Shown: positions 25,744-44,807 of the stretch, in pieces | How the letters are laid out: every line of letters begins with the position of its first letter | How positions within the stretch are numbered: position 1 is the stretch's first letter | NCBI GenBank assembly: GCA_044350705.1 | Contig: JBILHA010000001.1 | Coordinates: 113,809 to 177,808 of the forward strand | Length of the DNA: 64,000 nt | Source of the DNA: Candidatus Kapaibacterium sp. | GTDB taxonomy: Bacteria > Patescibacteriota > Patescibacteriia > UBA9934 | Reading direction: 5' to 3' | Made by a program: the position numbers and the translations under genes | Notes under the pieces: model-generated | Databases searched by the model: none | The model's input: the letters and a program-made list of their open reading frames with translations, nothing else | Told to the model about the DNA's origin: nothing

Positions 25744-25786
25744 AAAAAACCCCACTTTGCTTTTTTGAAGCTTGGTGGGGATTTTT
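25744..25786. terminator. bidirectional rho-independent terminator
   Basis: CCCCAC-(19 nt)-GTGGGG flanked by an A-run (left) and ATTTTT (right). It ends the + strand CDS and also lies just past the 3' CCA of the minus-strand tRNA-Thr 3' half. Confidence 0.6.
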
Positions 25787-25832
25787 GGAGCCACAGACCA
25801 GGATTGAACTGGTGACCTCGTCCTTACCATGG
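25786..25832 (-). other. displaced 3' half of the chromosomal tRNA-Thr(GGU) gene (anticodon loop to CCA), followed by the native terminator
   Basis: Minus strand reads (CC)ATGGTAA-GGACG-AGGTC-ACCAG-TTCAATC-CTGGT-CTGTGGC-T-CCA. Joined to the 5' half at 44521..44561 it makes a perfect intron-less 76-nt tRNA, with anticodon stem CGTCC/GGACG and acceptor GCCGCAG/CTGTGGC. Confidence 0.7.
25821..25832. repeat. 12-bp att core, left copy (TCCTTACCATGG)
   Basis: Identical to 44521..44532. It covers the anticodon loop (tRNA positions 30-41) of the split tRNA-Thr(GGU). Confidence 0.7.
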
Positions 25833-25997
25833 GAGGGGTCGAGTCCGAAAATCCAGATTCTTGGCTAGCTGTAGTAAAGAAACCGTGAAAATGAGGAGCT
25901 TCAGCAATCCATCTACTCGACCACTTCCACAATTAGTTACGCGGTAAATTATGCCGTGATTCAAAGCTACAGTCAAGCTTGATCAGGGCCGAAGGGA

Positions 25998-26399
25998 TTA
26001 CTTGAATGCGATCTCGAAATCGTACATGCCCATTCCACAGGTTCCTTCAAGTGTTCCTTGGGCTTTATTTGCGGCGATAGCAATCGTCTCTACACCCGTC
26101 GGCTCAAGAATACTGTCGTAGTCGAGTTCGAGGATAACTAGGCTAGCCGAGCAGTCAAAGGTGCCCTGTGTCGCTACACGCAACTCAGTGGCCACTCCGG
26201 CCTTTGCCTCAACAAATTTTGGGGTGTAACCGCCTTTGGCTGTGAGGTCGATCACCTGCACCCCGTCCTGCATGCTCACCGCGCTATTGTCGTCCGTGAC
26301 GACGGTGGCGGCATTGTTGCTCTTTAGGGCGAAGGAAAGAACGAGTAAGCCCACGATCGCACCACAGAATATCAACGCAACTTTCGAATCCTTTTGCAT
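25998..26399 (-). CDS. cupredoxin-like copper-binding protein (N-terminal TM anchor)
   Basis: 133 aa. TM helix and C-terminal Cys/Met cluster (TCGMGMYDF). Paralogue of 60509..60913, in the same operon position. Confidence 0.6.
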   Translation of the reverse strand: MQKDSKVALIFCGAIVGLLVLSFALKSNNAATVVTDDNSAVSMQDGVQVIDLTAKGGYTPKFVEAKAGVATELRVATQGTFDCSASLVILELDYDSILEPTGVETIAIAANKAQGTLEGTCGMGMYDFEIAFK

Positions 26400-26412
26400 A
26401 TTTCAATAAAGA

Positions 26413-27417
26413 TTATACGACCCCGAGTGCGCTGAGTGCATTCCACACATTGAAGAGGGCGAGAACGATGACCACGAGACCAGCCGCCTTGAAGAAGACG
26501 CCTTTCCACGGTTTGTTCGAGATCTCCAGCGCGCCGAAGGAAAGAAGCGCAAGCACAGGCAACGTACCAAGAGCGAAAAAGAACATCGTCATGGCACCAG
26601 AGAGGAAACTCCCCGTTGTGAGTGTGTAGACCTGCATCGACTGTGTGAAACCACATGGGAGGAAGAACGTGCCAATACCGACCAGCAGTGGCGCGAGCGC
26701 ATGCGAAGACTCAGCGGTGAGCTTTGTCTTCTTGGCAAAGAAGCTCGGGAGCTTCGGCTGAAGACGCTTGAATGCTGGGAACGTATCGAGCAGGTTCAAG
26801 CCGAGAATGAGCATGACGAGCGCAACCGCGATACTCAGGATCACGTTTCCGACGAGACCAAGCTGGAACAGCTTTCCGGCGCTACCAATAACGCCACCTA
26901 GCAAGAAGAATCCTCCCAAGCGTCCGACATGAAACATCGCCTGTGACGACCACCGTGCATTGTTCTTGGCGGCGCTCGCTGAGAGCGAAAGTACGAGACC
27001 TCCCACAACCGCGAGACACGTCGAGACCGAAGCAATAAGTCCGATGAGCAATGCTGTGCCATAAGTGACATCTCCGGTCGATACGAGGTTCACGATACCC
27101 AGCTGCTGTAACAGCATGAAGCCAATAATGGCCGTCGCTGCTGCTGGCACTGCAATGATGAAATCGCGATAGCTTGGCTTTGTCGCAGGCTTCTCAAGGG
27201 TAAGGCGGTAGCCACCACCGGACACGAATGCAGTGAGCTTCTGCGCAAGCGCGCTCGGGTCATCGGCGAAGTCGCCCGATACCACGACCGCACACACGTT
27301 CAAATCCGCCTTTACATGCGTAACGCCTTCTTTCCCGGGGAGCGTTTCCTCAAGGTAGAAGACGCACGAGGCACAGTGCATGCCTTCGACGTGGAATGTG
27401 TGTTTTGTATCGGCCAT
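26413..27417 (-). CDS. heavy-metal-associated domain fused to a TauE/SafE- or CcdA-like membrane domain
   Basis: N-terminal HMA motif GMHCASCV, then about 8 TM helices. Paralogue of 59493..60509. Confidence 0.65.
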   Translation of the reverse strand: MADTKHTFHVEGMHCASCVFYLEETLPGKEGVTHVKADLNVCAVVVSGDFADDPSALAQKLTAFVSGGGYRLTLEKPATKPSYRDFIIAVPAAATAIIGFMLLQQLGIVNLVSTGDVTYGTALLIGLIASVSTCLAVVGGLVLSLSASAAKNNARWSSQAMFHVGRLGGFFLLGGVIGSAGKLFQLGLVGNVILSIAVALVMLILGLNLLDTFPAFKRLQPKLPSFFAKKTKLTAESSHALAPLLVGIGTFFLPCGFTQSMQVYTLTTGSFLSGAMTMFFFALGTLPVLALLSFGALEISNKPWKGVFFKAAGLVVIVLALFNVWNALSALGVV

Positions 27418-27418
27418 A

Positions 27419-29674
27419 TTAGAGTTTCTTCATCTTGAGACGGAGCGAGTTGAGCACGACGGACACGCTCGACATCGCCATGGCGAAGCCTGCGAACACC
27501 GGGGAGAGCAGCCAGCCGAAGATCGGGAAGAAGATGCCGCTCGCCAAGGGGATGCCGATAATATTGTAGATAAACGCCCAGAACAGGTTCTGACGAATCG
27601 TACGCATCGTGGCCTTTGAAAGTTCGATGGCTTGGGCAATCTTGCGAATATCGCCCTTCAGGAGCGTAACGTCGCTCGTCTCAATCGAGACATCCGATCC
27701 TGTTGCCATCGCAATGCCGACATCGGCCTGCGCCAGTGCCGGAGCATCGTTCACGCCGTCGCCCGCCATCGTCACTACATCGCCCTTGGATTGCAGCTCT
27801 TTGATCAGGGCGAGCTTGTCTTGCGGCAGCACCTGCGCAACGTAACGATCGATACCGAGTTCCTTGGCAACTGACTTTGCTGCACCTTCGTGGTCGCCCG
27901 TTGCCATGATCATTTTGATGCCAAGGCGGTGAAGTTTTTCGATCGTTTCCTTGGCTTCCGGCTTGATTTGATCGCCGATTGCCGCGACTGCCAGCACTTC
28001 GTTCGCCGTGGCAAGAGCGATGAATGTTGCGCTCGTTGGGGCGTTCTTCATCGCGGGCATCTCAAGCTTGAGCGACTTGAGAAGCGCGGGGCCTCCAGCG
28101 TAGTAGGTCGTGCCGTTCAAGTCGCCCTGTATGCCGGTGCCGGGGAGGTTCTTAAAGCCCGTAACCTTACTTGTCTTTACGTTCTTCGATTGAGCATATG
28201 CGACAATCGCCCCAGCCAAGGGATGTTCCGATTGCGATTCAAGCGACGCAAGAATGCCAAGTGACTCCTCGCCGGAGAACGCAACAACTTCCGGCTTTCC
28301 TTTGGTCAGCGTTCCGGTCTTATCGACGACGAGTGCGGTCACCTTATGTAGCTTCTCCAATACTTCTGCATTCTTGATGAGGATGCCGTGTTCAGCGCCG
28401 CGTCTCACACCCACCATGATCGCCGTGGGAGTCGCCAAGCCAAGTGCGCACGGACAGGCGATGACGAGAATCGAGACGAATGAGGAAAGACCGAGGGAGA
28501 GCGTCTGCGCAAACGTCATCGATGATCCCCCGAGAACGAACCAGAGGATAAGTGTGATGACTGCGATAACCAATACGATGGGAACGAAGATTGATGAAAT
28601 CTTGTCCGCGAGTTTCTGAATTGGCGCTTTTGACCCTTGAGCATCCGAAACGAGCGTGATGATATGGGCGAGAAGCGTTTCAGAGCCGACACCGACAGCC
28701 TTCATCGTAAACGAGCCTGTCGTATTCATCGTGCCAGCCGCAACCTTGTCACCAAGTTTTTTCTCAACGGGGATAGGCTCTCCAGTGAGCATCGACTCAT
28801 CGATGAACGAGGAGCTTTCTTCAATCACGCCATCCACCGGCACTTTCATACCCGGCTTCACGAGAACCAGATCACCCTTTTGTACCTGATCAATTGAGAC
28901 AGTAAGCTCTTTGCCATTGCGAACGACAGTTGCGGTCTTCGCTTGTAGACCGAGGAGTTTCTTGATGGCGTCGCCTGTCCTTGCCTTGGCCCGTGCTTCA
29001 AAGTATTTACCAAGCGTAATGAGACCGATAACGACGATAGTTACGTCGTAGTACGTCGCCTTCACGTCGAGGTAGGGTTCAAGCGGCGCTTCAAATGCTG
29101 TGAGAATGAAGCTGTAGAGAAAAGCGGCCATCGTGCCGAGTCCTACCAAGGTATCCATGTCGGCGACGCCGCGGCGGAAGAACATCCAAAGGCCACGGAG
29201 GTACGGGGTACCCACCGTGAACATCATGTATGTCGCAAAAATGGGGAGGAGATGATGGAAGAACTCATAGATCGTTTCCGACATCTCGGGTAGCACGCCG
29301 TACTTTGAGAGGATCTCCCAAATCATCATGCCAGCGGCAAATATGACCATCGGCATCGAGATGACCACTTTCTTACGGAGCGCTTCGGTTTCTCCCGCCG
29401 AGACCTTTGCGTGGTCGTGCCCATCCGCATGCGATCCATGCTGTTCGTGGCTTACGGAAGCCTCTTTCGCATGCAGCTTGTAGCCCATTGGCTCAATCGC
29501 TTGGGAGAGAGCATGCAGGCTTGTCTGAGAGGGATCGAGCGTAATGCGGGCTTCTTCAGTCGCGAGGTTTACTGCCACCTCCTTTACGCCCGGCTGCTGG
29601 CCAAGTGTCTTCTCAATGCGCCCAACGCAGGAAGCGCAGTGCATCCCAGCGACATGTGCTTTTACCTTTTCCAT
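27419..29674 (-). CDS. copA: copper-translocating P1B-type ATPase
   Basis: N-terminal HMA ([12 protein letters not shown]), CPC ([11 protein letters not shown]), [13 protein letters not shown] and the HP motif. Confidence 0.9.
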   Translation of the reverse strand: MEKVKAHVAGMHCASCVGRIEKTLGQQPGVKEVAVNLATEEARITLDPSQTSLHALSQAIEPMGYKLHAKEASVSHEQHGSHADGHDHAKVSAGETEALRKKVVISMPMVIFAAGMMIWEILSKYGVLPEMSETIYEFFHHLLPIFATYMMFTVGTPYLRGLWMFFRRGVADMDTLVGLGTMAAFLYSFILTAFEAPLEPYLDVKATYYDVTIVVIGLITLGKYFEARAKARTGDAIKKLLGLQAKTATVVRNGKELTVSIDQVQKGDLVLVKPGMKVPVDGVIEESSSFIDESMLTGEPIPVEKKLGDKVAAGTMNTTGSFTMKAVGVGSETLLAHIITLVSDAQGSKAPIQKLADKISSIFVPIVLVIAVITLILWFVLGGSSMTFAQTLSLGLSSFVSILVIACPCALGLATPTAIMVGVRRGAEHGILIKNAEVLEKLHKVTALVVDKTGTLTKGKPEVVAFSGEESLGILASLESQSEHPLAGAIVAYAQSKNVKTSKVTGFKNLPGTGIQGDLNGTTYYAGGPALLKSLKLEMPAMKNAPTSATFIALATANEVLAVAAIGDQIKPEAKETIEKLHRLGIKMIMATGDHEGAAKSVAKELGIDRYVAQVLPQDKLALIKELQSKGDVVTMAGDGVNDAPALAQADVGIAMATGSDVSIETSDVTLLKGDIRKIAQAIELSKATMRTIRQNLFWAFIYNIIGIPLASGIFFPIFGWLLSPVFAGFAMAMSSVSVVLNSLRLKMKKL

Positions 29675-29677
29675 AGG

Positions 29678-29944
29678 CTACTTACGCTTGAGTTTGTACA
29701 CTTTAAGGATCTCTTCAATCGCCTTGCTTTCCTTGCCGCTCTTGATCTGGTTGATGGCGCAATGCCCAAGATGGCCTTCAAGCAACATGTCTTCAATATT
29801 GGAAAGACCCTGCTTCGCGGCAGAGGTCTGGGTGATGACATCGATGCAGTAGGTATCTTTCTCAATCATCTCGTGGAGGCCACGAATCTGCCCTTCGATG
29901 ATCTTGAGGCGACGAAGGAGACTCTTCTTATCGGTGTGCTGCAT
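29678..29944 (-). CDS. csoR: CsoR/RcnR-family copper-sensing repressor
   Basis: 89 aa. Conserved Cys...His...Cys ligand pattern (YCIDVITQ...HLGHCAIN). Start moved to the ATG at 29944, by alignment with the chromosomal copy at 56942. Confidence 0.8.
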   Translation of the reverse strand: MQHTDKKSLLRRLKIIEGQIRGLHEMIEKDTYCIDVITQTSAAKQGLSNIEDMLLEGHLGHCAINQIKSGKESKAIEEILKVYKLKRK

Positions 29945-29956
29945 ACGCCCCTCATA

Positions 29957-29974
29957 ATACCCCCTAGGGGGTAT
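29957..29974. promoter_or_regulatory. predicted CsoR operator (perfect 18-bp palindrome ATACCCCCTAGGGGGTAT)
   Basis: GC-tract inverted repeat of the ATACCC-N-GGGTAT type, 13 nt upstream of csoR. A near-identical site lies upstream of the chromosomal csoR. Confidence 0.6.
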
Positions 29975-30002
29975 ATGTAAAGTGTCTGAGGGGATAGCTA
30001 TG

Positions 30003-30803
30003 CTATCGCGAAAGTTTAAGGATTCGGTATGCGGCTTGGGTAACAAGTGCGAATGTGAGTGTACCGATAATGAGGTCAGGCAGCTTGGAATCAAAGATAA
30101 AGACCAGTACACCGGCGATTATGACTCCTACGTTCACGAGCACATCGTTCGCCGTAAAAATCCAGCTCGCCTTCATGTGTACGTCGCCGTGTCGGTGTCG
30201 TTGCAGCAGGTAAAGCGATGCGCTGTTACCAATAAGGGCAAGGATTGAGATGCCGATCATCATCTCGAATGCAGGAGTTTCACCAAAGCCCACGAATCGA
30301 CGAATAACTTCCATGAAGCCAAAGATGGCAAGTGCCACTTGGAGCACGCCACTGAGCCTCGCCACTTTCTTTTTTGTGGCAATAAGGCCGCCAACGGCAA
30401 GGAGGCTGAGGCCATAAACCGTGGCGTCAGCCAGCATGTCCAAGCTATCGGCAACAAGACCCATAGAGTGGGCAATGAAGCCAGTAACCAGCTCAATAAC
30501 AAACAGTCCAAGATTAATTCCAAGTACGGCAAGAAGAAGCTTTCGTTCGTCCTTAACATGTTCGACGGCCCCCTCCTCATACGAAGCGATTGTCTCGGAT
30601 GACAAGAACGAATCCCCAAGTGCTAGTGAAGCAACGTTTTTGGCGAGAACAGCATCGCCACCCTCATGAAAAACGGTTAGGAGACGGCTTTGGAGATCGA
30701 CCTCAACCCTTCTCACTCCATCCGTTTCTTTTAGCTTCATGCGAATCAAGCGTTCCTCCGAAGGGCAATCCATCTTAGATACCCGATAGATGGTTTTCTT
30801 CAT
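30003..30803 (-). CDS. cation-diffusion-facilitator (CDF) transporter TM domain with N-terminal HMA-like domain
   Basis: N-terminal ~70-aa ferredoxin-like domain (MDCPSEE). TM core with metal site (VADSLDMLADATVYGLSL). Paralogue of 33400..34017. Confidence 0.6.
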   Translation of the reverse strand: MKKTIYRVSKMDCPSEERLIRMKLKETDGVRRVEVDLQSRLLTVFHEGGDAVLAKNVASLALGDSFLSSETIASYEEGAVEHVKDERKLLLAVLGINLGLFVIELVTGFIAHSMGLVADSLDMLADATVYGLSLLAVGGLIATKKKVARLSGVLQVALAIFGFMEVIRRFVGFGETPAFEMMIGISILALIGNSASLYLLQRHRHGDVHMKASWIFTANDVLVNVGVIIAGVLVFIFDSKLPDLIIGTLTFALVTQAAYRILKLSR

Positions 30804-30811
30804 ATCGCGGG

Positions 30812-31048
30812 CTACTTTCTACCCCACGCATATCGTACGAGGAGAGCTGTGGCAATTGGCCAAAAGATGACGGCGAAGAGGTTGAGTGTTGGCGTGAGGG
30901 TGTAAAACCTGAAATCGATCGGCAAGTCGCTACTCAAAAGAAATGCCCAGTGAACAATAGTCTGGTTTACCGCGATACCCGCCAAAAGTTTTGCCACTTC
31001 TCTCTTGTTGATTTTCATATAGATATTAATAGTTTTTGCACTTATCAA
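30812..31048 (-). CDS. small hypothetical membrane protein
   Basis: 78 aa with two hydrophobic helices. Confidence 0.3.
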   Translation of the reverse strand: MISAKTINIYMKINKREVAKLLAGIAVNQTIVHWAFLLSSDLPIDFRFYTLTPTLNLFAVIFWPIATALLVRYAWGRK

Positions 31049-31340
31049 TCATGTCTCCCTGTTTATCGAGTATCTTTCCGGCCGCTCGAACAATGGCACC
31101 GACCTCCCGCTGAGACACGCGATAAAAAACCTGCCGTCCTTTCTTGGTTCTTTGGACAAGATGACACTCCAAAAGGCACGCGAGATGCGCCGATGTATTC
31201 GGCTGTGAGAGTTCCGTTTCTTTAACGATCTCCGAAACGGTCTTCGGGCCATCTATGAGAGCGTTCAAAATGGCGAGTCGTGACCGATCAGCAAACCCCT
31301 TCAGAAGCCGAGATGCGAGCGTTAATTGTTGTGCGTTCAT
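31026..31340 (-). CDS. ArsR/SmtB-family metalloregulator
   Basis: wHTH LAILNALIDGPKTVSEIVKETELSQPNTSAHLACLLECHLV, including the metal-sensing Cys pair. Confidence 0.8.
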   Translation of the reverse strand: MNAQQLTLASRLLKGFADRSRLAILNALIDGPKTVSEIVKETELSQPNTSAHLACLLECHLVQRTKKGRQVFYRVSQREVGAIVRAAGKILDKQGDMIDKCKNY

Positions 31341-31456
31341 AATTATATAACTATCTACTTATATAATATCACGACACGAACCCGATCACGCACCAAAAAT
31401 ATTGGCTGGAATAAAGTTAATTTGTGATGGAAGAGTAATTCGCTTACACTGGGGCC

Positions 31457-31876
31457 ATGAATTTGGGGTTTACTCAACAGAATTTCTTGTCCGCCTTTGG
31501 TCGACGCATGGCCACCGCGCTCTTCTTTTGCGTGATGTTCCTTTTGTTTGTCGTGACGTGCCATCCGCTGAGCAATGATGCGCGCTTCGAGCTTGCAGGC
31601 ACTGTAGACGATTGCTGTACCGAGCACGTCACAGAAGCGAGAGATGCGCACGCATCGCCGTTGGCTGATATTGTGCTCCCGAATGGTACCGACTTCATCA
31701 CGACCCTTGCCGTCTTTGCTGCCGTTGTTTTCTTCACGTGGCTTGTCGTGGTGCCGATTACCAAAAGCACCGTACAGCTCCGTGATCGGCTTTTGCGATG
31801 GTTATGGGCGATGCCGTGGCCCTTTGCATGGAGCGGCGGCTATCTCCCGTACTTCAGTCCAATGCGCGATGCATAG
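31457..31876 (+). CDS. hypothetical small membrane protein with DDCC motif (uncertain)
   Basis: Two TM helices and a Cys pair. Competing ORFs exist on the opposite strand, so the region is unresolved. Confidence 0.25.
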   Translation: MNLGFTQQNFLSAFGRRMATALFFCVMFLLFVVTCHPLSNDARFELAGTVDDCCTEHVTEARDAHASPLADIVLPNGTDFITTLAVFAAVVFFTWLVVVPITKSTVQLRDRLLRWLWAMPWPFAWSGGYLPYFSPMRDA

Positions 31877-31917
31877 CATGAGATGAATCAGCTCACGCTT
31901 ATTCATTTTATTTTGCT

Positions 31918-32694
31918 ATGGAAAACGAACAGAAGAATTCGGGCATGCTCGATTCAATGAACCCTAAAGCCTCATTTGTTTTTGGCTTGGTAACTGGTAT
32001 TGCGGCAATCTCGATCCTGATGCAATTCGGTCTCTTGGGAAGCAACGTAAACGCTGCTGACGTCGCAGACTCGGGATCGGCGGTCGTCGCAAACACAAAG
32101 ACTGGTGGAACGAACACCGCGACGGCAAAAGCCCCTACCGGCAAGGTTCCTGAGGTTACTGACGAAGATCATATTCGCGGAGATAAAGATGCCCCCGTCA
32201 CGTTCATCGAGTACTCGGACTTTGAATGTCCTTTCTGCAAAAGGTTTGCGCCAACTGTCGAGCAGATCCTTGAGGAGTACGACGGCGAGGTGAAAGTCGT
32301 CTACCGTCACTATCCGTTGTCATTCCATGCGAACGCACAGAAGGAAGCCGAGGCTTCTGAATGTGCGAACGAACTTGGGGGTAATGATGCCTTCTGGGAG
32401 TACCACGACGCCATCTTTGAGCGTGGAGAAGCAGGAGGAACCGGATTCGCGCTTGATGATCTCGTTCCACTTGCCGAGGAACTTGGCTTGAACGGCGATA
32501 AGTTCCAAGACTGTCTCGATAGCGGCAAGTACGCCAGCCACGTTAAAGAAGACATGGCGGGAGGCGCGGCTGCGGGCGTGACAGGAACGCCGGGGTCGTT
32601 CATCATCGACGCCAAGGGCGACGCGCAGCTCGTTTCTGGTGCCCTCCCGTACGAATCAATCAAAACCATGCTCGATGAAGCGCTTGCAAAGTAG
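31918..32694 (+). CDS. DsbA-like thiol:disulfide oxidoreductase, membrane-anchored
   Basis: N-terminal TM helix. Thioredoxin fold with active site CPFC. Confidence 0.7.
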   Translation: MENEQKNSGMLDSMNPKASFVFGLVTGIAAISILMQFGLLGSNVNAADVADSGSAVVANTKTGGTNTATAKAPTGKVPEVTDEDHIRGDKDAPVTFIEYSDFECPFCKRFAPTVEQILEEYDGEVKVVYRHYPLSFHANAQKEAEASECANELGGNDAFWEYHDAIFERGEAGGTGFALDDLVPLAEELGLNGDKFQDCLDSGKYASHVKEDMAGGAAAGVTGTPGSFIIDAKGDAQLVSGALPYESIKTMLDEALAK

Positions 32695-32753
32695 CCTCAT
32701 GTTTCGGGAGGGCGCTTGTTCGCCCTCCCGGCAGCATATCTAACCTCCCCCAT

Positions 32754-33398
32754 ATGGAAGATCAGCTTACCCCACAGCCTGCAACGGAGCAGTCGCGACC
32801 GCGTCCGGCACGTTTTACGGCAAAGCAAAAGAAGATGATGGTGCTTGCAGCGATGATCGTCATTCCGCTTGCACTCGCGTTTTATTTCAAGAGCCACTTC
32901 ATCGCCGCGACGGTGGACGGCAGCCCGATCAGCCGTTTGACCGTCATCCGTGAATTGGAACGGCAAGGGGGTGAAACGGTGCTTAATGCACTCATTACGG
33001 ATAAACTCGTCGATGCCGAGGCGGCCCGAAAAGGTATCGTTCTTTCGGATGAAGAACTCAATGAAGAGATCGATAAACTCAAAAAAGGGGTTACCGATAT
33101 GGGAGGCTCGTTTGAAGAGGCACTCGCTGAACGAGGCTTTACCGAAGAGAGCCTGCGACGAAACATCGCAACGCAGTTAAAGATCCGCAAACTGCTTGCT
33201 GATGTTATTTCGGTAACCGAGGAAGAGATCGATAGCTACATTACCGAAAGCGGGATCGAGATTCCGGCAGGTAATGAAGCTGAACTTCGAGAGCAAGTCC
33301 GCACCGAACTTGAAGACGGTAAATTTACCCAAGAGGCTGAAGGGTTCATCGAGGGGCTGAAAGCGCAGGCGGATATTACGTATTACGTGAACTACTAG
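32754..33398 (+). CDS. SurA-N-terminal-domain-like periplasmic chaperone, membrane-anchored
   Basis: TM anchor followed by the helical chaperone domain typical of the SurA/PrsA N-terminus. No PPIase domain. Confidence 0.5.
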   Translation: MEDQLTPQPATEQSRPRPARFTAKQKKMMVLAAMIVIPLALAFYFKSHFIAATVDGSPISRLTVIRELERQGGETVLNALITDKLVDAEAARKGIVLSDEELNEEIDKLKKGVTDMGGSFEEALAERGFTEESLRRNIATQLKIRKLLADVISVTEEEIDSYITESGIEIPAGNEAELREQVRTELEDGKFTQEAEGFIEGLKAQADITYYVNY

Positions 33399-33399
33399 T

Positions 33400-34017
33400 A
33401 TGTCCGATTGTTGCGCCATCCCTTCAAAGGCAGACGTCGCGAAGCAGAGAACGATGCTCTGGATCGTCCTCACGCTCAACGCTGTTATGTTTTTCGTAGA
33501 AGTCTACGCCGGCTTTGTCGCCCGTTCGAGCGCCGTTCTTGCCGATTCGCTCGATATGCTTGGCGACGCATTGGTCTACAGCCTGAGCATTTGGTCGCTT
33601 CAGAAAACGGTGCTCTGGAAAGGCCGAGTCTCCCAAGTAAAAGGCTACCTCATGGCGCTGCTCGCGCTTGGCGTCATCGGCGAGGCGATCTGGAAAATCT
33701 TCGCTTCGGTGGAAATTGAAGGTTCGGTCATGATGGGCATCGGCGTCCTCGCGCTGGTCGTAAATACCGTCTGCTTCACCCTACTGAACCGCCACAAGAA
33801 AGACGGTATCAATCTGCGTTCGGCGTGGATTTGCTCGCGCAATGATCTTCTCGCAAATACCGGCGTCTTGATTGGCGGCTTGCTCGTCCTGACCACGTCC
33901 TCGACGTGGCCGGACATCATCATCGCACTGGCAATTGGGTGCTACGTTCTCAAGAGTGCAATTGACGTGATCCGCGAGTCGAGAGAAGAAACGGAACACC
34001 ACGAAAAATGCGTATGA
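33400..34017 (+). CDS. cation-diffusion-facilitator transporter (TM domain only)
   Basis: LADSLDMLGDALVYSLSI and HxxxD-type sites in six TM helices. No cytoplasmic C-terminal domain. Confidence 0.65.
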   Translation: MSDCCAIPSKADVAKQRTMLWIVLTLNAVMFFVEVYAGFVARSSAVLADSLDMLGDALVYSLSIWSLQKTVLWKGRVSQVKGYLMALLALGVIGEAIWKIFASVEIEGSVMMGIGVLALVVNTVCFTLLNRHKKDGINLRSAWICSRNDLLANTGVLIGGLLVLTTSSTWPDIIIALAIGCYVLKSAIDVIRESREETEHHEKCV

Positions 34018-35088: not shown

Positions 35089-35091
35089 CTT

Positions 35092-35553: not shown

Positions 35554-35556
35554 ATT

Positions 35557-36755: not shown

Positions 36756-36756
36756 G

Positions 36757-37662
36757 TTAGAAGATCGAATTAATAGGGTTCTTTTCGATACTGGCGTGCA
36801 CCTGCTTTTGATTTACTTGAGTGTAGATCATGGTAGTCGTAATCTCCTTGTGGCCGAGCGCTCGTTGGACGGAAACGATATCGTTGCTCCCCATATAGGT
36901 TTGCGTGGCGAACGTGTGCCGGAATTTGTGTGGCTTGATCCTGATGCCCGTCCGGTCACCAATGTGCCGAGTGAGATGCTTAAGGCCATTAGCCGTAAAT
37001 CGAGTCCGACCGTGGTAAGAAACCCACAGCCAGATCGACTCCACCTTTTGCTTCCCACGTTCTTGAAGGTATCGCTCCAGCAGTTCGCGAAGACGGAAGC
37101 ATAGCGGCACCGATCTTGCCATTCGGCTCTTTGAGGTTTCGGCCCGTACACGAATAACCCCGTTCTCCCAATCAAGATCCGTAACTCTGAGGTTGAGTAA
37201 CTCCCCCTTTCGCAGCCCGGCCATAGCCATCACACCGAACATTGCTACATTGCGGACGCGCTCAAAGTCGGTCTGTGCGCTCATGTTGACCTGATACATG
37301 ATCGATTCCATTTCCGCCTGCGTGTAGTACTCCGGCAAGTTTTTGACCAATGGAGGAGTCGGTATCGAAGCGAGTGGATTTACGCCGAGATGACCACGAT
37401 CAACGCACCACTTCAAGAAAGGCGAAAGGTTTTTTCGGTATGAGATAACCGTTGTCGCCTTCCATCCACGCTCTCGCTCTCCCCTGAGGAGGAACTGACG
37501 CAAGATACCTTCCGTCAGCTCGTCCGTCGTCTTCACGGGAAACATCTTCAAAAGCAGGCGAAAGCTCTCGTGATAGCTTTGCATCGTTGCATCCGAACGC
37601 CGTTTCAGGGTTCCATCCTGACACTCGTGGATGAATTGATTGTGCGCCTGCCGTACATCCAC
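36757..37662 (-). CDS. tyrosine-type site-specific recombinase (XerC/D-like)
   Basis: R...HxxR...Y catalytic constellation (HKFRHTFAT...LGHKEITTTMIYTQV). Confidence 0.8.
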   Translation of the reverse strand: MDVRQAHNQFIHECQDGTLKRRSDATMQSYHESFRLLLKMFPVKTTDELTEGILRQFLLRGERERGWKATTVISYRKNLSPFLKWCVDRGHLGVNPLASIPTPPLVKNLPEYYTQAEMESIMYQVNMSAQTDFERVRNVAMFGVMAMAGLRKGELLNLRVTDLDWENGVIRVRAETSKSRMARSVPLCFRLRELLERYLQERGKQKVESIWLWVSYHGRTRFTANGLKHLTRHIGDRTGIRIKPHKFRHTFATQTYMGSNDIVSVQRALGHKEITTTMIYTQVNQKQVHASIEKNPINSIF

Positions 37663-37665
37663 AAA

Positions 37666-38004: not shown

Positions 38005-38015
38005 AGCATGGGTTA

Positions 38016-39176: not shown

Positions 39177-39196
39177 ATAGTCGTCTGTGAGAGTGA

Positions 39197-39601
39197 TCAG
39201 TTAATCCTTTTAGGAGACGTCGGGATAAACCTGCGCATAATCGAGCCGCAGTCCCCACAATTTGCCACCTCTTGCAGTTGCTCGCGGTTGTCTTTGCCGA
39301 CGAGCTTTCCTGTCTTCTCCGTCCTGACACTTTCGAGATCAACGCGCTTCGCTTCGTGACATCTCAGGCAGTAGAACTCTCCCGGCTGGAGCTTCACTCT
39401 ATGATCCTGTCGGCGCTTGCTGAGAAATGCCTTAAGTTGATCGCCATAGAACAGGAGTGGATTGGTGTCTGAACGGATAGGTTTCAGCCCGTCATCTACC
39501 CAGCGGTAGATGCTCCCCCTTCTAACATCGAGCAGATCAGCGATCTCCTGCGGCGTATACGTTCGGCGATCTTTGATGATCCGAAGATTGTGATTACGCA
39601 T
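39197..39601 (-). CDS. HTH DNA-binding protein with C-terminal zinc ribbon (excisionase/regulator candidate)
   Basis: Excisionase-like HTH (QEIADLLDVRRGSIYRWV) plus CLRCH...CGDCG. Start moved to the internal ATG at 39601. Confidence 0.45.
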   Translation of the reverse strand: MRNHNLRIIKDRRTYTPQEIADLLDVRRGSIYRWVDDGLKPIRSDTNPLLFYGDQLKAFLSKRRQDHRVKLQPGEFYCLRCHEAKRVDLESVRTEKTGKLVGKDNREQLQEVANCGDCGSIMRRFIPTSPKRIN

Positions 39602-39611
39602 ATCAGGAGGA

Positions 39612-39884
39612 TTAATTCCACCAGCTTTGCCCAAGCGCCCCTCGAATACGACCTTTAATGTCTCGGACCGTCGACCAAAACCGAATCGGCTCGATGGCCA
39701 TCTCCCCGGCAAACAGCCGATTCTGTATCGCCTCCAGCTCTTTGGAGGAAACGAAAACCGCCACGGCTCGGCGTGGGTTAATGGGGTCAGACTCAAACGC
39801 CTTGATCGGGATCTCATGGTAGGCGAGAACGCAGATCAAAATGAATTCTGACGTCTTAAACAGATTCATCTTCTTGGATTTCAT
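39612..39884 (-). CDS. hypothetical small protein
   Basis: 90-aa ORF immediately upstream of the HTH gene. Confidence 0.3.
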   Translation of the reverse strand: MKSKKMNLFKTSEFILICVLAYHEIPIKAFESDPINPRRAVAVFVSSKELEAIQNRLFAGEMAIEPIRFWSTVRDIKGRIRGALGQSWWN

Positions 39885-40022
39885 AACATCTATTTCATCT
39901 TGATTACCGCCACATCACATCAAAATCTGCGTGCTTAAAGTACGCAGAACCTCCCCCGGTGGCATAACAAAAAAAGAGCCATATTATTGGCTCAAAAAAA
40001 GTTATGCACTTTTTAAGTGAAG

Positions 40023-40847
40023 TTAAGTGTCGACTTTATTCAGTCGGGTCTGATAGGCCTTCTCTGAAATAACCTCCATGCGAACCGTCGGAACGACTCG
40101 ACCATTTTCTATCTGAAGTACCCGCGTAAGACCGAGTCCACTTCGTGTGTAAAGCGAACAACGGTCGTTTGTATTGAAATAGTCGAGGAAACCGCGCATA
40201 TCATCTGGAACCACGTCTTCCTGCTCTGCAATGCGTACAAGAAATCCCCAATACTTACCTAAGCCATTCAGGAAGGCGCTTTCATAATTGCCATTAACGA
40301 TAACCCGAACCTTCGGTCGTCCCTCAAGCCGAACGAAAAGGATTTCGCGGATATTTGGGCTGGGTAGTAATTTTGGCTGCTCTTTCTTATTTGCCGCTAT
40401 GGCTAGACCACGTTCTTCGAGAATTTCCACCACCTTTAAGGCGATATCCTCCTTGTCTTCCTCAGTCAGTTTCCGATCTGGAATGAGGGCAGGGATCATC
40501 TCCTCCTCATCCTCCATGACCTCAACACAGAGATGACCGAACCTTAATGGTTCAATGGCCGGAAGTTGGGGAATTTCAAACGAAATTCTCGCCATCTCCG
40601 TCAGTTTTTGCATTTCATTGAATGAGTCGATGATTTGCTGTCCCGGCAGCGTTAATTTTCCCAGCTGCGCAGCCTTTTCGGCTACTCCGGTTAATGCGGC
40701 CGCCGCCATCTGAAAACTCGCCTCATGAGCGTCAAAAAAGCCCTGAATCCTCTTTTGTGACTCAAGAAACGGGGCGAGCGCCGTCTGCATTTCTTCTTCG
40801 ACGTGTTTGACGGCCGATAAACCCGTCAAATCTAAATACTTCGTCAT
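40023..40847 (-). CDS. hypothetical protein (274 aa)
   Basis: Clean ORF with no recognisable motif. Confidence 0.5.
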   Translation of the reverse strand: MTKYLDLTGLSAVKHVEEEMQTALAPFLESQKRIQGFFDAHEASFQMAAAALTGVAEKAAQLGKLTLPGQQIIDSFNEMQKLTEMARISFEIPQLPAIEPLRFGHLCVEVMEDEEEMIPALIPDRKLTEEDKEDIALKVVEILEERGLAIAANKKEQPKLLPSPNIREILFVRLEGRPKVRVIVNGNYESAFLNGLGKYWGFLVRIAEQEDVVPDDMRGFLDYFNTNDRCSLYTRSGLGLTRVLQIENGRVVPTVRMEVISEKAYQTRLNKVDT

Positions 40848-41147
40848 ATACTCATCTCATCTGGGACAAAATTACCAGAAAAAATCCCATTTCTCAATTT
40901 GAGGCAAGGATAAGTTCGGAGTTGCTTACCCTGAAAAAATAAGGTATTATTACCTCACAACACCTAAACCCGACCCCGTGGTTGGGCATGGTTAAACACC
41001 TACACGACTGAGACGGTCTTCCGACTGGCACTTATTCGTGTAGGGCCCTATTCCGCAAGGATAGGGGGTTGTTGCCGAAAGGCGCAGCCGTCAGCTCGGG
41101 AGACCTTTTGAGTTTCCCGACATTTATTAACCCCTACACGAATACCT

Positions 41148-41726
41148 ATGTCGCACGATACGACAGGGACCAAAAACTGGTTCGCCAGACACAAGATACT
41201 CAGCGCACTCGGAGGAATCATCCTCTTTTTCATTATCATCGGAGCAGCTTCAGACGGCTCATCTAGTACAAGCTCTTCAAGCAACCCTTCCGGCTCGAAT
41301 GCCGAGCAGCAGGAAGCGCCAGCGGCTTACACGCTGAACGACGAGGTGACCGTTGGCGACGTAAAGTGGATTGTGACCTCTGCTACATCGAAAACCTCGC
41401 TTGCTGGAGCATTTGGCGGCACAGAAACGACTCAAGGAAAATTTGTCGTTATTAACGTGACCGTCGAAAATTTGGGAAAGGACATGAAATCCATGTCGAA
41501 CCTAAAGCTGGTCGATAGCCAAGGTCGCGAGTTCACAAGCTCCTCCAAAAGCTATAAGAATCTTGGAGCAGAGCAGCTTTACATCCTTCAAAACCTGAAT
41601 CCCAACCTGCCGTATACCTTCGCGGACGTGTACGAGGTGCCTACTGGTGCGGAGGGCCTCTCGGTGGTGGTCGGAGATTTGGCACTTTTTGGAAGTGATG
41701 AAGCCAAGATTGGCCTCGGTTTCTAA
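41148..41726 (+). CDS. DUF4352-like secreted/anchored protein
   Basis: TM anchor, Ser-rich linker, then a beta-sandwich-like domain (KFVVINVTVENLGKD), typical of DUF4352. Confidence 0.55.
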   Translation: MSHDTTGTKNWFARHKILSALGGIILFFIIIGAASDGSSSTSSSSNPSGSNAEQQEAPAAYTLNDEVTVGDVKWIVTSATSKTSLAGAFGGTETTQGKFVVINVTVENLGKDMKSMSNLKLVDSQGREFTSSSKSYKNLGAEQLYILQNLNPNLPYTFADVYEVPTGAEGLSVVVGDLALFGSDEAKIGLGF

Positions 41727-41744
41727 AACCCGAAACACCCTCAT

Positions 41745-41772
41745 GAAAACCTCCCCTTCGGGGAGGTTTTCT
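41745..41772 (+). terminator. rho-independent terminator
   Basis: AAACCTCCCC-TTCG-GGGGAGGTTTT. Confidence 0.75.
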
Positions 41773-41786
41773 GATACATTGCGCGC

Positions 41787-43091
41787 ATGAACATCGAAGA
41801 TTTGCGATCATCAGTGACGGAGGAGATATGGAAAAAGTTGGAATCGGTAGCAAACAAATTTGTTACGGAAGCCATGCGATTCGAACTGGTCGATCAGTAC
41901 GGCCAAGAGCGGTATTTTCATTTGGATTTTTCTGAGTTCAGAAACACCAATCAGGATATCTACTCCCATTTCCATAAGCAGAAAACTGGCCTGAGCCCTG
42001 AAGACATCATCTATCCCTATTTTCAGGCTGGGGTGTATCTAGCCGTAGATCGTGATTGGAAGCAATACGAAAAACTCCGTTCGATGAGCTCGCTTCAACG
42101 CGATCCCTTCTATTTTCACAAAGACGCACCGCACGACGCCCTTGTGAACATGAAGATCATGGAGTCCATGGCGGAGGCCCAACAACGCCATGCTTTTATT
42201 GTGCCGATTTGGAACTTTACGAATTTCACCGAAGGACTCATTGAATTTGAAGAAAATCTGCAGAAGTTGTTACCGCCGGAAATTCAACTTATTTTGACAG
42301 AAGAATCAGCAAAACGAGAACACGCGGCGTTGATCGGAACCATATACGAGCAGCACATGCGCCTCACCGAGGTGAAGGAATTTTTCAGCTACCCGTCAGT
42401 AATGCTGTCGTGTGTAGGTACCAATTTCTTCGCCTTCCAAAAAGCGTGTTCGTCCTTACGTATAGTTTGCGATCTCTTCAGAATTTCAGGTTACCTTTTT
42501 CCGGGACAGCTCTCCTCTGACGTCGATGGCCTAAAGATATATACCGCAGCAATGGTTTCGCCCGGCTCGGTTGGGACCTGTTTCGATTGGGAAGACGAGA
42601 AACGAGGTATCAAAGAGCGCCGCCCTGATGGAAACCTCTTCCAATCGCACGGCCACAGAAGGGTTTCCAAAATGTTCATTGATACACGCAACTACGGCGG
42701 ATTCCTGCAGGTCTTTAAAGAATGGTCGCCGTGGATCCAGAAAGCAGTCGACGACCCATTCGACAAGAAGGTACTACATACACTCATTCCGATCCTGCAC
42801 TTGCTTTCGGAGGTCACGCAGGCACAGAGCGTGGGGTCGAAGATCCTTCTCTTGAACTGCTGCCTTGAAAGCATGTTCGTACCCAATGGAGCGCCGGGAC
42901 AACAGAAATACATCGTTGGTGCATTGAAAGTCATCAACGAGGATTTGGTCGATTGGTTTGAAAAGCGGCTCTACAAGCAAAGATGCGTATTCGCCCACGA
43001 AGGCTATCTGGTTGCGGATGAAAAATCGAGAGGACTCGTCACCGAATCGATGCGCAATATACTCACTTGTTTGAAGATGAAACTGGGCTGA
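41787..43091 (+). CDS. hypothetical protein (434 aa)
   Basis: Long clean ORF with its own terminator. No recognised domain. Confidence 0.55.
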   Translation: MNIEDLRSSVTEEIWKKLESVANKFVTEAMRFELVDQYGQERYFHLDFSEFRNTNQDIYSHFHKQKTGLSPEDIIYPYFQAGVYLAVDRDWKQYEKLRSMSSLQRDPFYFHKDAPHDALVNMKIMESMAEAQQRHAFIVPIWNFTNFTEGLIEFEENLQKLLPPEIQLILTEESAKREHAALIGTIYEQHMRLTEVKEFFSYPSVMLSCVGTNFFAFQKACSSLRIVCDLFRISGYLFPGQLSSDVDGLKIYTAAMVSPGSVGTCFDWEDEKRGIKERRPDGNLFQSHGHRRVSKMFIDTRNYGGFLQVFKEWSPWIQKAVDDPFDKKVLHTLIPILHLLSEVTQAQSVGSKILLLNCCLESMFVPNGAPGQQKYIVGALKVINEDLVDWFEKRLYKQRCVFAHEGYLVADEKSRGLVTESMRNILTCLKMKLG

Positions 43092-43103
43092 TCCTCTTAT
43101 CAT

Positions 43104-43130
43104 AAAACCACTCGCAAGAGTGGTTTTATT
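43104..43130. terminator. bidirectional rho-independent terminator
   Basis: AAAACCACTC-GCAA-GAGTGGTTTT between convergent genes. Confidence 0.75.
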
Positions 43131-43156
43131 CATAGCCTATATAGCGGGTCAAGTGA

Positions 43157-44107
43157 TCATGCGAAGTTCAGGGGGTGTTTCGTCATCTGGCTCCTCAAAT
43201 GCTCAACAGAAGCCGATAGGTAGATTGTCGTCGTTTTAATGTCGTTATGGCCCAGCATTTTAGAGAGCGAATAGATATCGCAGCCGCCCTCAATCATCAG
43301 GGTTGCGAACGTGTGCCGGAGCATGTGAATGTAGAAGTAAAGGCCCGAGGCCGCAATGATGCGCTCGACGAGCCGCTTCAGGCCTGAGTCCGTAAATCTC
43401 CCATCCCGATGCAATGAGACAAAGAAGTACAGGTTTGTTTTCTGCAGCTTCTCACGTTCGGTAAGGTATTTCTCAAGAATCGCAATAAGCTGAAATGGAA
43501 TGGGTACGACACGGTCTTTATTGCCCTTGCCCTGTCGGATGCAGATGACCATGTTCATCAAATCGACGTCCGTTATCTTGAGCTTGAGCAACTCATTCTT
43601 ACGAAGTCCGCAGTAAAGGAACATCGCAAATATTGCATGATTCCGATGGCGTAAGAATGCATGTGGGTACGGAAGGCATGCGGACGTTTCGATAATCGTG
43701 AGCGCCTCTTGTTTGGTGAGTCGTTTGGGCAAGTTCTTCTCAAGCCGAGGTTTTTCGATTTGCGCGAAAGGATTCTCACTCACGAAGTGCCGATCTTGTG
43801 CCCACTTGAAGAAGACATTGAGGCGTTTGTGATGGGTAATAAAGGTGCTTGCCGTCCATTTCTTTGTTGACCTCCCCCAGTAAAAGAATTTCTGGGCGAC
43901 TAAAAAAGACACCTCGTCAACACGCTCTACTTCAGGGCATGCCTGCAAGAACGTTCTGAGTGTCTCTCGATAACTTTTTACCGTCGTCGAACGGTAATTC
44001 CTGATTGTCTCCTGATACTGACAAAAAGACTCGTGCAGTTCTCCGATCCTCATATTCATCTCATTTAGAGCGGAATATGGATCGAGTATCCACTTCAGAT
44101 GTCTCAA
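43157..44107 (-). CDS. int: tyrosine-type integrase adjacent to tRNA gene
   Basis: HMLRHTFATLMIEGGCDIYSLSKMLGHNDIKTTTIYLS catalytic region. Its 3' end is 23 nt from the tRNA 3' end. Confidence 0.85.
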   Translation of the reverse strand: MRHLKWILDPYSALNEMNMRIGELHESFCQYQETIRNYRSTTVKSYRETLRTFLQACPEVERVDEVSFLVAQKFFYWGRSTKKWTASTFITHHKRLNVFFKWAQDRHFVSENPFAQIEKPRLEKNLPKRLTKQEALTIIETSACLPYPHAFLRHRNHAIFAMFLYCGLRKNELLKLKITDVDLMNMVICIRQGKGNKDRVVPIPFQLIAILEKYLTEREKLQKTNLYFFVSLHRDGRFTDSGLKRLVERIIAASGLYFYIHMLRHTFATLMIEGGCDIYSLSKMLGHNDIKTTTIYLSASVEHLRSQMTKHPLNFA

Positions 44108-44129
44108 TACGAGATTAAGCCATCTGAAG

Positions 44130-44406
44130 TGGAGCCACAGTCGGGATTTGAACCCGAGACCTCATCCTTCGTTTACACCCCTGTTTTCTTGGGCACTATC
44201 AGGGGGCTAGACTGTATCTTAGGCATGTCTTGCGACGAAGCCTCCCTTGTCAGTCGTTCGGGCGTACGCTTTCGCGTTGACGCCACGGTCTTGACCTTGC
44301 CGGGTCTTTAACCGTAATTCGGGGTTCAGTCCCGCATTTCTGCGAGAGGGGGCAGGAGACATTACGTCCCACCATGGATGCGCTCTACCAACTGAGCTAC
44401 TGCGGC
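44130..44406 (-). tRNA. tRNA-Thr(GGU) interrupted by a group I intron between positions 36/37
   Basis: 5' exon GCCGCAG-TA-GCTC-AGTTGGTA-GAGC-G-CATCC-ATGGU (44371..44406). 3' exon AA-GGATG-AGGTC-TCGGG-TTCAAAT-CCCGA-CTGTGGC-T-CCA (44130..44169). Acceptor and anticodon stems pair perfectly only when the exons are joined. The 5' exon ends in U and the intron ends in G. Confidence 0.6.
44170..44370 (-). ncRNA. group-I-like self-splicing intron (~201 nt) in tRNA-Thr(GGU)
   Basis: Contains GGTCAAGACCG (P4/P6-like), a P7 pair GACTG...CAGTC with the J8/7-like AAGATACAGTC (consensus AAGATATAGTC), and a terminal omega-G. Insertion after the anticodon matches the Azoarcus tRNA-Ile class. Confidence 0.5.
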
Positions 44407-44520
44407 ATGAATTGTTTCACTCCGACGACCGCCTCCACGGAGGATGTGGTCGTCCTATTTCTCTTTTCTTGATTTCTTCTTTTACATTGGCGTCAAACCT
44501 AGTTCTCAGGGTAGACCACC

Positions 44521-44532
44521 TCCTTACCATGG
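44521..44532. repeat. 12-bp att core, right copy (TCCTTACCATGG)
   Basis: Identical to 25821..25832. Confidence 0.7.
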
Positions 44533-44561
44533 ACGCGCTCTACCAACTGAGCTACTGCGGC
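44521..44561 (-). tRNA. 5' half of the split chromosomal tRNA-Thr(GGU) gene (positions 1-41)
   Basis: GCCGCAG-TA-GCTC-AGTTGGTA-GAGC-G-CGTCC-ATGGTAA-GGA, then unrelated sequence with no T-arm. Pairs perfectly with the 3' half at 25786..25830. Confidence 0.65.
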
Positions 44562-44787: not shown

Positions 44788-44807
44788 TTAGTTAAAAAAG
44801 AACCATG

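Follow-up and report, generated by a model that had tools for sequence, protein, structure and literature searches.

A genomic island in a split tRNA-Thr(GGU) gene carries a complete tRNA-Thr(GGU) gene with a predicted group I intron

Introduction

When a mobile element breaks a tRNA gene in two and neither junction rebuilds it, how does the cell keep the tRNA? This question is raised by a 64-kb stretch of contig JBILHA010000001.1 (the whole stretch analysed, hereafter the window), in which the two halves of a tRNA-Thr(GGU) gene lie on either side of an 18.7-kb island. Judged by the source names of the homologues of its GlyRS, the host appears to be a bacterium of the Patescibacteria (candidate phyla radiation, CPR). 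The answer that we propose, with a probability of about 0.8 for the whole account, is that the island integrated in the host tRNA-Thr(GGU) gene and brought with it an intron-bearing replacement.

The host tRNA gene and its junctions

The original prediction had described the two halves of the gene on the minus strand, and its coordinates and letters were confirmed. The 5′ half, GCCGCAGTAGCTCAGTTGGTAGAGCGCGTCCATGGTAAGGA (44561..44521), comprises the acceptor, the D-arm, the anticodon stem CGTCC and the loop ATGGTAA, followed by GGA, and the 3′ half, CCATGGTAAGGACGAGGTCACCAGTTCAATCCTGGTCTGTGGCTCCA (25832..25786), comprises CC, the loop, GGACG, the variable loop, the T-arm, the acceptor and CCA. 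When the halves were joined via their shared 12-mer, as had been suggested, ARAGORN called a 76-nt tRNA-Thr(ggt) with a regular cloverleaf, and an uninterrupted tRNA gene identical to the joined halves, save for the encoded CCA, was found on metagenome contig L095 (contigs and loci used for comparison are cited by L numbers). The 12-bp direct repeat had been taken as genuine, in agreement with the observation that TCCTTACCATGG occurs exactly twice in the 64 kb (at 25821 and 44521), against 0.00 occurrences expected from 100 shuffles.

The inverted arms that had been reconstructed for attP are legible directly in the junction sequences, where GACCCCTCC and GGAGGTGGTC flank CATGGTAA. The site may be read as a short palindrome that imitates the anticodon stem-loop, GACCCCTCC-CATGGTAA-GGAGGTGGTC. 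As also predicted, no tRNA is rebuilt across the junctions, and default ARAGORN found none at attL or attR. After the core the island reads GGTGGTCTACCCTGAG..., with neither T-arm nor acceptor, and the covariance model gave a 16-bit partial match only. The likeness of attP to the tRNA ends approximately 10 nt beyond the loop, and the 5′ half is left over. attP and attB have only 12 bp in common, so that two dead halves are all that remains of the host gene.

The island-borne tRNA-Thr(GGU) gene

The target gene had been described as inactivated. The host gene is indeed split, but the corollary that its function was simply lost, with no tRNA supplied, did not hold, because the island carries a tRNA-Thr(GGU) gene of its own. 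This complete gene lies on the minus strand at 44406-44130, 114 bp inside attL and just upstream of the integrase gene int. Default ARAGORN reported only tRNA-Tyr and tRNA-Thr(UGU) in the window and missed the island tRNA because of a 201-nt group I intron after anticodon nucleotide 36. With the intron option the program called tRNA-Thr(ggt) across 44406..44130, and the spliced sequence, in which CCAUGGU is predicted to be joined to AAGGAUGAGGUCUCGGGUUCAAAUCCCGA (CCAUGGU/AAGGAUG), is a regular tRNA. The gene is co-oriented with the host tRNA-Thr(UGU)-tRNA-Tyr operon upstream of it, and the spacer that separates it from attL, which is kept in L008, L013 and L014, contains the arm motif once more, as a palindrome (GACCACATCCTCC GTG GAGGCGGTC, 44451..44427). 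The island tRNA would compensate for the lost host tRNA-Thr(GGU); ACC and ACU make up 52% of the Thr codons in the flanking host genes, which bears on the need for this tRNA.

The opposite assignment, with the complete tRNA as the host's own gene and the 5′ half as a duplication, was considered and rejected, since the block of spacer, tRNA and int stands beside different upstream flanks in the window, L013 and L014, and since the 3′ half at attR has a different, host-specific T-arm, ACCAGUUCAAUCCUGGU, followed by the host terminator.

The predicted group I intron

The insert in the island tRNA is predicted to be a group I intron. It is preceded by U, and the last nucleotide of all 20 introns in our alignment, this one included, is a G, with AAGG or AATG next in line. 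The alignment comprised the window, 18 loci with a homologous insert at the same tRNA position directly upstream of int, and L036, in which the insert lies 3.6 kb upstream of int. Unguided folding of the 20 sequences with RNAalifold gave P1, P2, P4, P5, P6, P7, P8 and P9 in canonical order, and when the P3 pseudoknot was added 97.4% of cells were paired, with compensatory change in 24 of the 47 pairs. None of 500 shuffles reached these values, and sliding the 3′ partners reduced pairing to 29-47%. The full order of helices is P1-P2-P3-P4-P5-P6-P7-P3′-P8-P7′-P9, with a P3/P7 pseudoknot, and in P1 the exon GGU pairs with GCC, the U·G at the splice site (columns 7/29) being present in 20/20 sequences. 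Covariation was observed in P2, P5, P6, P8 and P9; P3 showed two compensatory pairs, on 3 bp only, and P4 and P7 are essentially invariant and argue neither for nor against the fold. The 24 compensatory pairs keep the intron helices, indicating purifying selection on the fold, and ARAGORN called tRNA-Thr(ggt) for 20/20 spliced homologues. Co-divergence of intron and integrase is visible in the window's own subfamily; over all 20 loci it is weak (Spearman 0.16) and we did not rely upon it.

Gene content of the island

Between the tRNA halves (25833-44520) the island comprises approximately 10.6 kb of cargo and a backbone of about 8 kb. Pfam matches in the cargo include cupredoxin, DsbD_2+HMA, a P-type ATPase, CsoR-like and ArsR-like regulators and two CDF transporters, together with two DsbA proteins, DsbB, SurA_N, PAP2 and an M14 peptidase. 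The composition of the island is foreign: the GC (guanine plus cytosine) content of the cargo is 49-55% (53-55% in 4/5 intervals of 2 kb) versus 44-48% on either side of the island, and the GC skew seen in the flanks is lost.

The tyrosine integrase that had been placed at the right end was recovered with PF00589 (3.5e-33, 43157-44059, minus strand). An exact-sequence look-up with a 316-amino-acid (aa) int open reading frame (ORF) gave no match because the true start gives 300 aa. The protein (Int) scores below the NCBIfam equivalog cut-offs for XerA (182 bits versus 220), XerC (178 versus 335) and XerD (167 versus 330), and for this reason we call it Xer-like, on size and domains only, and not a Xer orthologue. 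A second Xer-like recombinase is encoded at 36757-37662, on the border between backbone and cargo, suggesting that the cargo may have been added to a basic element of about 8 kb. Such a second recombinase lies near the attR end in all 7 other elements delimited at both ends (see below), which suggests that a heteromeric, XerC/D-style pair could act on the palindromic att core.

The subfamily to which the window belongs (with L008, L009, L013 and L014) adds a 386-aa recombinase and small conserved ORFs, in the window within 36405-39817. The genes for the 274-aa and DUF4352 proteins are kept in the same four loci, and the 434-aa ORF had no match in any related element searched. The HTH_17 protein also matches phrog_66 and TIGR01764, weakly. 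No virion or terminase genes were found with Pfam over nearly all candidate island ORFs or with PHROGs over nine backbone proteins, and the island does not qualify as a temperate phage; its relative L010 does carry a terminase.

Table 1. Features of the split tRNA-Thr(GGU) locus and of the island, in window coordinates
Feature	Coordinates	Strand	Basis or remark
Native terminator-like hairpin CCCCAC...GTGGGG with T-run, after the host 3′ half	25744..25780	-	Read from sequence
Host tRNA-Thr(GGU) 3′ half = attR	25786..25832	-	Sequence; 76-nt tRNA-Thr(ggt) once joined to the 5′ half
attR copy of the 12-bp common core TCCTTACCATGG	25821..25832	.	2 matches in the window, 0 expected
Cargo, metal and disulfide handling	25833..36404	.	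Pfam matches
Second tyrosine recombinase, Xer-like, 301 aa, at the end of the backbone away from Int	36757..37662	-	PF00589, 3.7e-34
Third, divergent tyrosine recombinase, 386 aa	38016..39176	-	Conserved in L008, L009, L013, L014
HTH_17/excisionase-like DNA-binding protein, candidate directionality factor	39197..39817	-	Pfam HTH_17, 2.2e-6
Backbone genes (274 aa, DUF4352, 434 aa)	40023..43091	.	Several proteins without family match
Int, 300-aa Xer-like tyrosine recombinase, without separate arm-binding domain	43157..44059	-	Pfam PF00589, 3.5e-33
3′ exon of the island tRNA-Thr(GGU), AAGGATG...CTGTGGCTCCA (whole: AAGGATGAGGTCTCGGGTTCAAATCCCGACTGTGGCTCCA)	44130..44169	-	Spliced product called tRNA-Thr(ggt)
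Predicted 201-nt group I intron, between tRNA nucleotides 36 and 37	44170..44370	-	P1-P9 with P3 pseudoknot, covariation
5′ exon of the island tRNA-Thr(GGU), GCCGCAG...CATCCATGGT (whole: GCCGCAGTAGCTCAGTTGGTAGAGCGCATCCATGGT)	44371..44406	-	Sequence; ARAGORN intron option
114-nt spacer	44407..44520	-	attP right arm GGAGGTGGTC at the junction; second palindromic arm motif
Host tRNA-Thr(GGU) 5′ half (tRNA nucleotides 1-41) = attL	44521..44561	-	Core copy 44521-44532
Host tRNA-Thr(UGU) and tRNA-Tyr(GUA), co-oriented with the split gene and the island tRNA and upstream of both	44703..44884	-	ARAGORN
Reconstructed junctions			attB = GAGCGCGTCCATGGTAAGGACGAGGTCACC; attP = GACCCCTCCCATGGTAAGGAGGTGGTCTACC

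The same architecture in relatives

Relatives of Int were collected by a scan based on an integrase alignment, with one genome per species; the 80 loci kept represent Patescibacteria, Bacteroidota, Myxococcota, Simkania and a Ruegeria isolate, among others. Cultured carriers include Niastella populi CCTCC AB 208238 (L068, intron-bearing) and Ruegeria atlantica HKCCD9103 (L041, intron-less). A complete tRNA was found 30-120 bp upstream of int, on the same strand, in 32/80 loci (mostly Thr-GGU, with some Lys, Ala, Phe, Pro or Thr-UGU/CGU), and 17 further loci have an intron-bearing tRNA-Thr upstream of int. The other 31/80 showed no tRNA upstream of int, the ARAGORN intron option included, and this branch presumably uses other targets. 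Approximately 27 loci have a host 5′ half that breaks off immediately behind ...TGGTAA, at a distance of 110-150 bp upstream from the island tRNA. Seven further elements (L029, L037, L051, L056, L062, L080 and L089; 5.6-9.2 kb) could be delimited by matching host 5′ and 3′ halves at both ends. In these distant relatives the 7-nt anticodon loop lies at the centre of an almost perfectly palindromic attP, GACCTNGTTA-ATGGTAA-TAAACAGGTC, as against GACCCCTCC-CATGGTAA-GGAGGTGGTC in the window's subfamily. Relatives of Int at 72% and 69% identity sit in the same host neighbourhood as the window, RRF-GlyRS-M16-TIM-TPR. In these loci (L009 and L010) a host 5′ half ending ...CCATGGTAAGGA is followed about 110 bp on by a complete intron-less tRNA-Thr(GGU) and then by int. 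No close relative of Int was found in IMG/VR, GenBank phages or PLSDB plasmids, in which the best identities were 33%, 32% and 32%, respectively; these collections thus yielded neither an annotated nor a cultured relative of the integrase.

At L029 (9690-9960) the intron-bearing island tRNA has exons that match the host tRNA-Thr(GGU) of the window letter for letter, and in several loci the island 5′ exon exactly equals the adjacent host 5′ half; capture from close relatives of the host or an exchange of halves is possible. In L024 (9740-9761), L025 (9500-9521) and L040 (588-610) the leftover consists of tRNA nucleotides 1-12 followed by GTTTTGGTAG, and int is preceded by a complete tRNA-Lys, hinting at a sub-branch that crosses over in the D-loop rather than the anticodon loop. 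In L099, L100 and L102 (approximately 1378-1422, 7162-7206 and 6049-6093, respectively) a fragment of tRNA-Thr(GGU) that begins in the D-loop, TTGGTAGAGCGCGTCC..., follows palindromic repeats CCCGATCCCGACCGAGTCGGGATCGAGGATCCTCGA, with a complete tRNA-Thr(GGU) within about 130 bp, which makes for a junction of another type in this tRNA. L019 (NZ_JMIY01000006.1, labelled Candidatus Methanoperedens nitroreducens) combines int with an intron-bearing, bacterial-type tRNA-Thr(GGU); on this archaeon-assigned contig an attP-like site, ..TGATGGTAACGAACAGGTC, is present and the host 5′ half is absent. The contig may be mis-binned, the element may be unintegrated, or the module may occur across domains.

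Movement and decay at the site

Comparison of flanks supports past mobility. In L094 the cargo end and the attR junction are 93% identical to the window over 4 kb, after which the host flank and the terminator are different, and in L013 and L014 the spacer, the intron-bearing tRNA and int (88% Int identity) are kept beside different upstream flanks. The check for an uninterrupted locus, which the original prediction had called for, succeeded in a relative and failed in the window's own population: in L191, whose GlyRS is 83% identical, an intact intron-less tRNA-Thr(GGU) stands directly after TPR-rpmG, at the syntenic site. The same site in L185 (16243-18430; GlyRS 92% identical) holds a fossil host 3′ half and an internally deleted int, and here the intron-bearing tRNA-Thr(GGU) is present and the host 5′ half is gone, the island tRNA having apparently been domesticated as a resident gene.

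A second variable spot (24621-25735 in the window) lies beside the tRNA site. The strain that is 98.5% identical to the window in DNA (L186-L188) diverges abruptly at 24621, just after rpmG, and the window's 365-aa gene without family match is replaced there by unrelated DNA.

Proposed mechanism and alternative explanations

The anatomy of the locus, the recurrence of the module, the fold of the intron and the intact syntenic site in a relative lead us to the following account. The island would have entered the anticodon loop of the host tRNA-Thr(GGU) by site-specific recombination through a tyrosine recombinase, and the host gene would have been broken into two dead halves around it. The island tRNA-Thr(GGU), on the same strand as the host tRNA operon, would then take over, its 201-nt group I intron splicing itself out to yield a working tRNA. 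Splicing, complementation, co-transcription with the host operon and present-day mobility are steps that would be expected from the sequence.

A number of observations weigh against this account. No empty site was found for the window's population, and every contig with an identical Fur gene either includes the island or breaks off ahead of it. In the nearest strain (98.5% identity) similarity is lost at 24621 and the contigs do not reach the tRNA site; L184 and L189 likewise stop too early. A search of JGI metagenomes with one degenerate attB/attP/attL/attR pattern returned no circular attP junction. Rfam RF00028 gave no match at E<=10, even in a permissive search of the 301-nt region 44120-44420, and permissive searches of 43900-45000 and 44120-44420 produced no group I match, with weak chance matches only; the same model likewise misses tRNA-Thr introns at 36/37, which are detected by the gpI_bact_tRNA model (PMC13011429). 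Self-splicing with a guanosine cofactor, and splicing in cells, are predicted properties of the intron. A sigma-70 promoter scan found none near the tRNA cluster, so that co-transcription with the host operon is argued from orientation only. Finally, the need for complementation is judged from 64 kb of genome, with indirect support from the codon share given above and from the small size of CPR genomes; were a second intact tRNA-Thr(GGU) present outside the 64 kb, the anatomy would be unaffected and complementation would no longer be needed.

Alternatively, the island might now be a fixed, immobile fossil, integrated in the past and with no excision or transfer in this population. Every contig that spans the site, from several independent metagenome samples, is 100% identical and has the island, the metagenome scan gave no attB or attP junction of this population, and L185 demonstrates that such elements decay in place. 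However, the 12-bp cores match perfectly, the arm motifs show no damage, neither the three recombinase ORFs nor the HTH protein are truncated, and a 93%-identical copy exists in another host context (L094), and we therefore regard loss of mobility as unlikely, while leaving it a real share of the probability.

It is much less probable that the target tRNA was inactivated and left unreplaced, with the intron-bearing gene as a non-functional relic and the cell relying on tRNA-Thr(UGU) or another copy. Default ARAGORN and Rfam see no tRNA or intron at this position, splicing is deduced from sequence, and tRNA-Thr(UGU) adjoins. Against this, neither exon is damaged, ARAGORN recognises each of the 20 spliced homologues as tRNA-Thr(ggt), the 24 compensatory pairs extend over 20 loci from several phyla, intron-less relatives have a complete tRNA at the same position, and L185 has retained its intron-bearing copy despite a decayed int. 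A functional split tRNA of the Nanoarchaeum type, trans-joined through the trailer GGAGGUGGUC after the 5′ half and the leader GACCCCUCC before the 3′ half, which are complementary over 9-10 nt, is hardly credible, given that the halves overlap by 12 nt and do not abut, that complementary arms are the expected look of inverted recombinase-binding sites, that distant relatives have the palindrome GACCTNGTTA/TAAACAGGTC instead, whatever the tRNA sequence, that a complete replacement gene is present, and that the bulge-helix-bulge splicing endonuclease is not known from bacteria.

Intron and integrase as possible partners

Within the preferred account, integration of the island with its replacement tRNA, the position of the intron raises a further question. 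The intron interrupts the 7 nt that the inverted arms enclose, ATGGT^AA, and with integration an intron-less allele gives way to an intron-bearing one. Recombinase module and group I intron might therefore be partners in two respects, a proposal that we put forward tentatively and with the odds somewhat against it. As a vehicle, the integrase would serve as the 'homing' means of an intron that has no homing endonuclease, each integration destroying an intron-less host allele and installing an intron-bearing one that could later be domesticated, as in L185. As a mask, the intron in the crossover core would erase the attachment site from the replacement gene, so that the island could not recombine with its own tRNA and rival elements would be kept out (site exclusion).

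The 5′ strand of the anticodon stem is identical to that of the host target in 0/15 intron-less island tRNAs and in 8/13 intron-bearing ones (Fisher p = 4e-4, the loci not being phylogenetically independent), and the 5′ part differs from the host target by a median of 4 nt in intron-less versus 1 nt in intron-bearing genes (Mann-Whitney p = 5e-4). At L049 (9361-9720; also at L059) a single int is preceded by two 5′ halves in succession, a host half joined to a TAAACAGGTC-type spacer and a half of an intron-less island tRNA joined to a AGAAGTGGTC-type spacer, which looks like serial integration of a second element into the intron-less tRNA of the first. Stem differences and L049 fit the idea that an intact anticodon stem-loop is a liability that the intron removes, but an intron that hitch-hikes neutrally would account for them nearly as well. 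If true, the vehicle part could explain the patchy occurrence of tRNA-Thr(GGU) 36/37 introns in Patescibacteria and other phyla, and masking would offer a bacterial, ribozyme-based test case of the Randau-Söll idea (see below), the first natural case that is testable.

Relation to known systems

The original prediction had set the element apart from classical tRNA-integrating islands. It does differ from these, but integration over a short core coupled to a replacement tRNA has a precedent in tRNA-dependent lysogeny (Guerrero-Bustamante & Hatfull 2024, PMC10865867), in which integration disrupts a host tRNA and a phage tRNA replaces it. In the systems described there (Fionnbharth K4, Cluster L, Gaia X, BrutonGaster and Mollymur, and prophage Lj965 of Lactobacillus johnsonii) the core is 8-17 bp, the tRNA is not rebuilt and the phage cognate tRNA complements, and the authors expected occurrence beyond actinophages. 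The island shares the tyrosine integrase, attB in a host tRNA gene, a short core (12 bp here) and an element tRNA of the same isotype and anticodon as the disrupted gene, and by its structure it would count as a case of such disrupt-and-replace integration. It differs in being a non-phage metal-resistance island in a CPR bacterium and not a temperate actinophage; in having a 300-aa Xer-like protein, apparently paired with a second Xer-like paralogue, instead of a lambda-like arm-binding integrase; in its target, tRNA-Thr(GGU) as opposed to tRNA-Lys, Ile2 and Leu; and in the replacement tRNA, which lies directly between attP and int and has a group I intron. Disruption and replacement of an essential tRNA gene would thus not be confined to actinophages, and would extend to CPR and other phyla and to cargo islands as well as phages.

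Integration in tRNA genes reportedly falls into classes by sublocation, set out by Williams in 2002. Classical tRNA-targeting islands and prophages, including an anticodon-loop class, are collected in the Islander database (PMC4383910). As in that class, crossover at our locus is in the anticodon loop, the stem supplies the dyad symmetry, int lies by attL and a displaced 3′ fragment is found at attR; in classical islands, however, attP has the whole 3′ part of the tRNA, which gives an intact hybrid gene at attL with no leftover 5′ half, and here neither holds.

Group I introns of tRNA-Thr(GGU) at 36/37 have already been catalogued (PMC13011429, in which genomes GCA_001029635.1, GCA_016700375.1 and GCA_030583745.1 have tRNA-Thr introns at this site). 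The island intron resembles these in its site, in the U at -1 and the terminal G, in its length of about 200 nt, in the absence of an endonuclease gene and in being missed by RF00028. The paper on introns in Patescibacteria regards them as belonging to chromosomal tRNA genes, deduces that horizontal transfer has been limited and nowhere uses the word 'integrase', whereas the intron-bearing gene in the window forms part of a mobile integrase module and takes the place of a host allele that has no intron. The Randau-Söll hypothesis, as summarised in PMC4390854, holds that introns and splits shield tRNA genes from integrating elements. Our locus resembles it in that the intron lies exactly within the target sequence of the integrase; the hypothesis concerns archaeal host genes and protein-spliced introns, whereas here a predicted ribozyme lies in the element's own tRNA, in Bacteria, where a protective role would be hypothetical.

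Disrupt-and-replace integration and the intron class are thus each known, and no report of the combination was found; the searchable literature gave no report that links intron-bearing tRNAs to integrase modules, none of a non-phage metal-resistance island built by disrupt-and-replace and none of an intron inside a 7-nt crossover core. The proposed account would provide a concrete route by which an endonuclease-less group I intron spreads and displaces intron-less tRNA alleles. It also bears on annotation, as standard procedures would show a genome without tRNA-Thr(GGU) or with a 'split' one, and the same trap probably exists in many CPR annotations.

Other observations in the window

Between tRNA-Tyr and the host 5′ half (44562-44685, minus strand) we observed a near-perfect long hairpin of about 124 nt, with a folding energy of -69.7 kcal/mol compared with -37 for shuffles (z = -9.4). 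Two independent metagenome contigs (L004 and L005) break at its centre, at approximately 44620. Further upstream in window coordinates, at 16583-18178 and 18305-19933, two adjacent paralogous genes encode secreted proteins of 531 and 542 aa, the C-terminal ~140 residues of which are nearly identical, pointing to a probable recent duplication or gene conversion.

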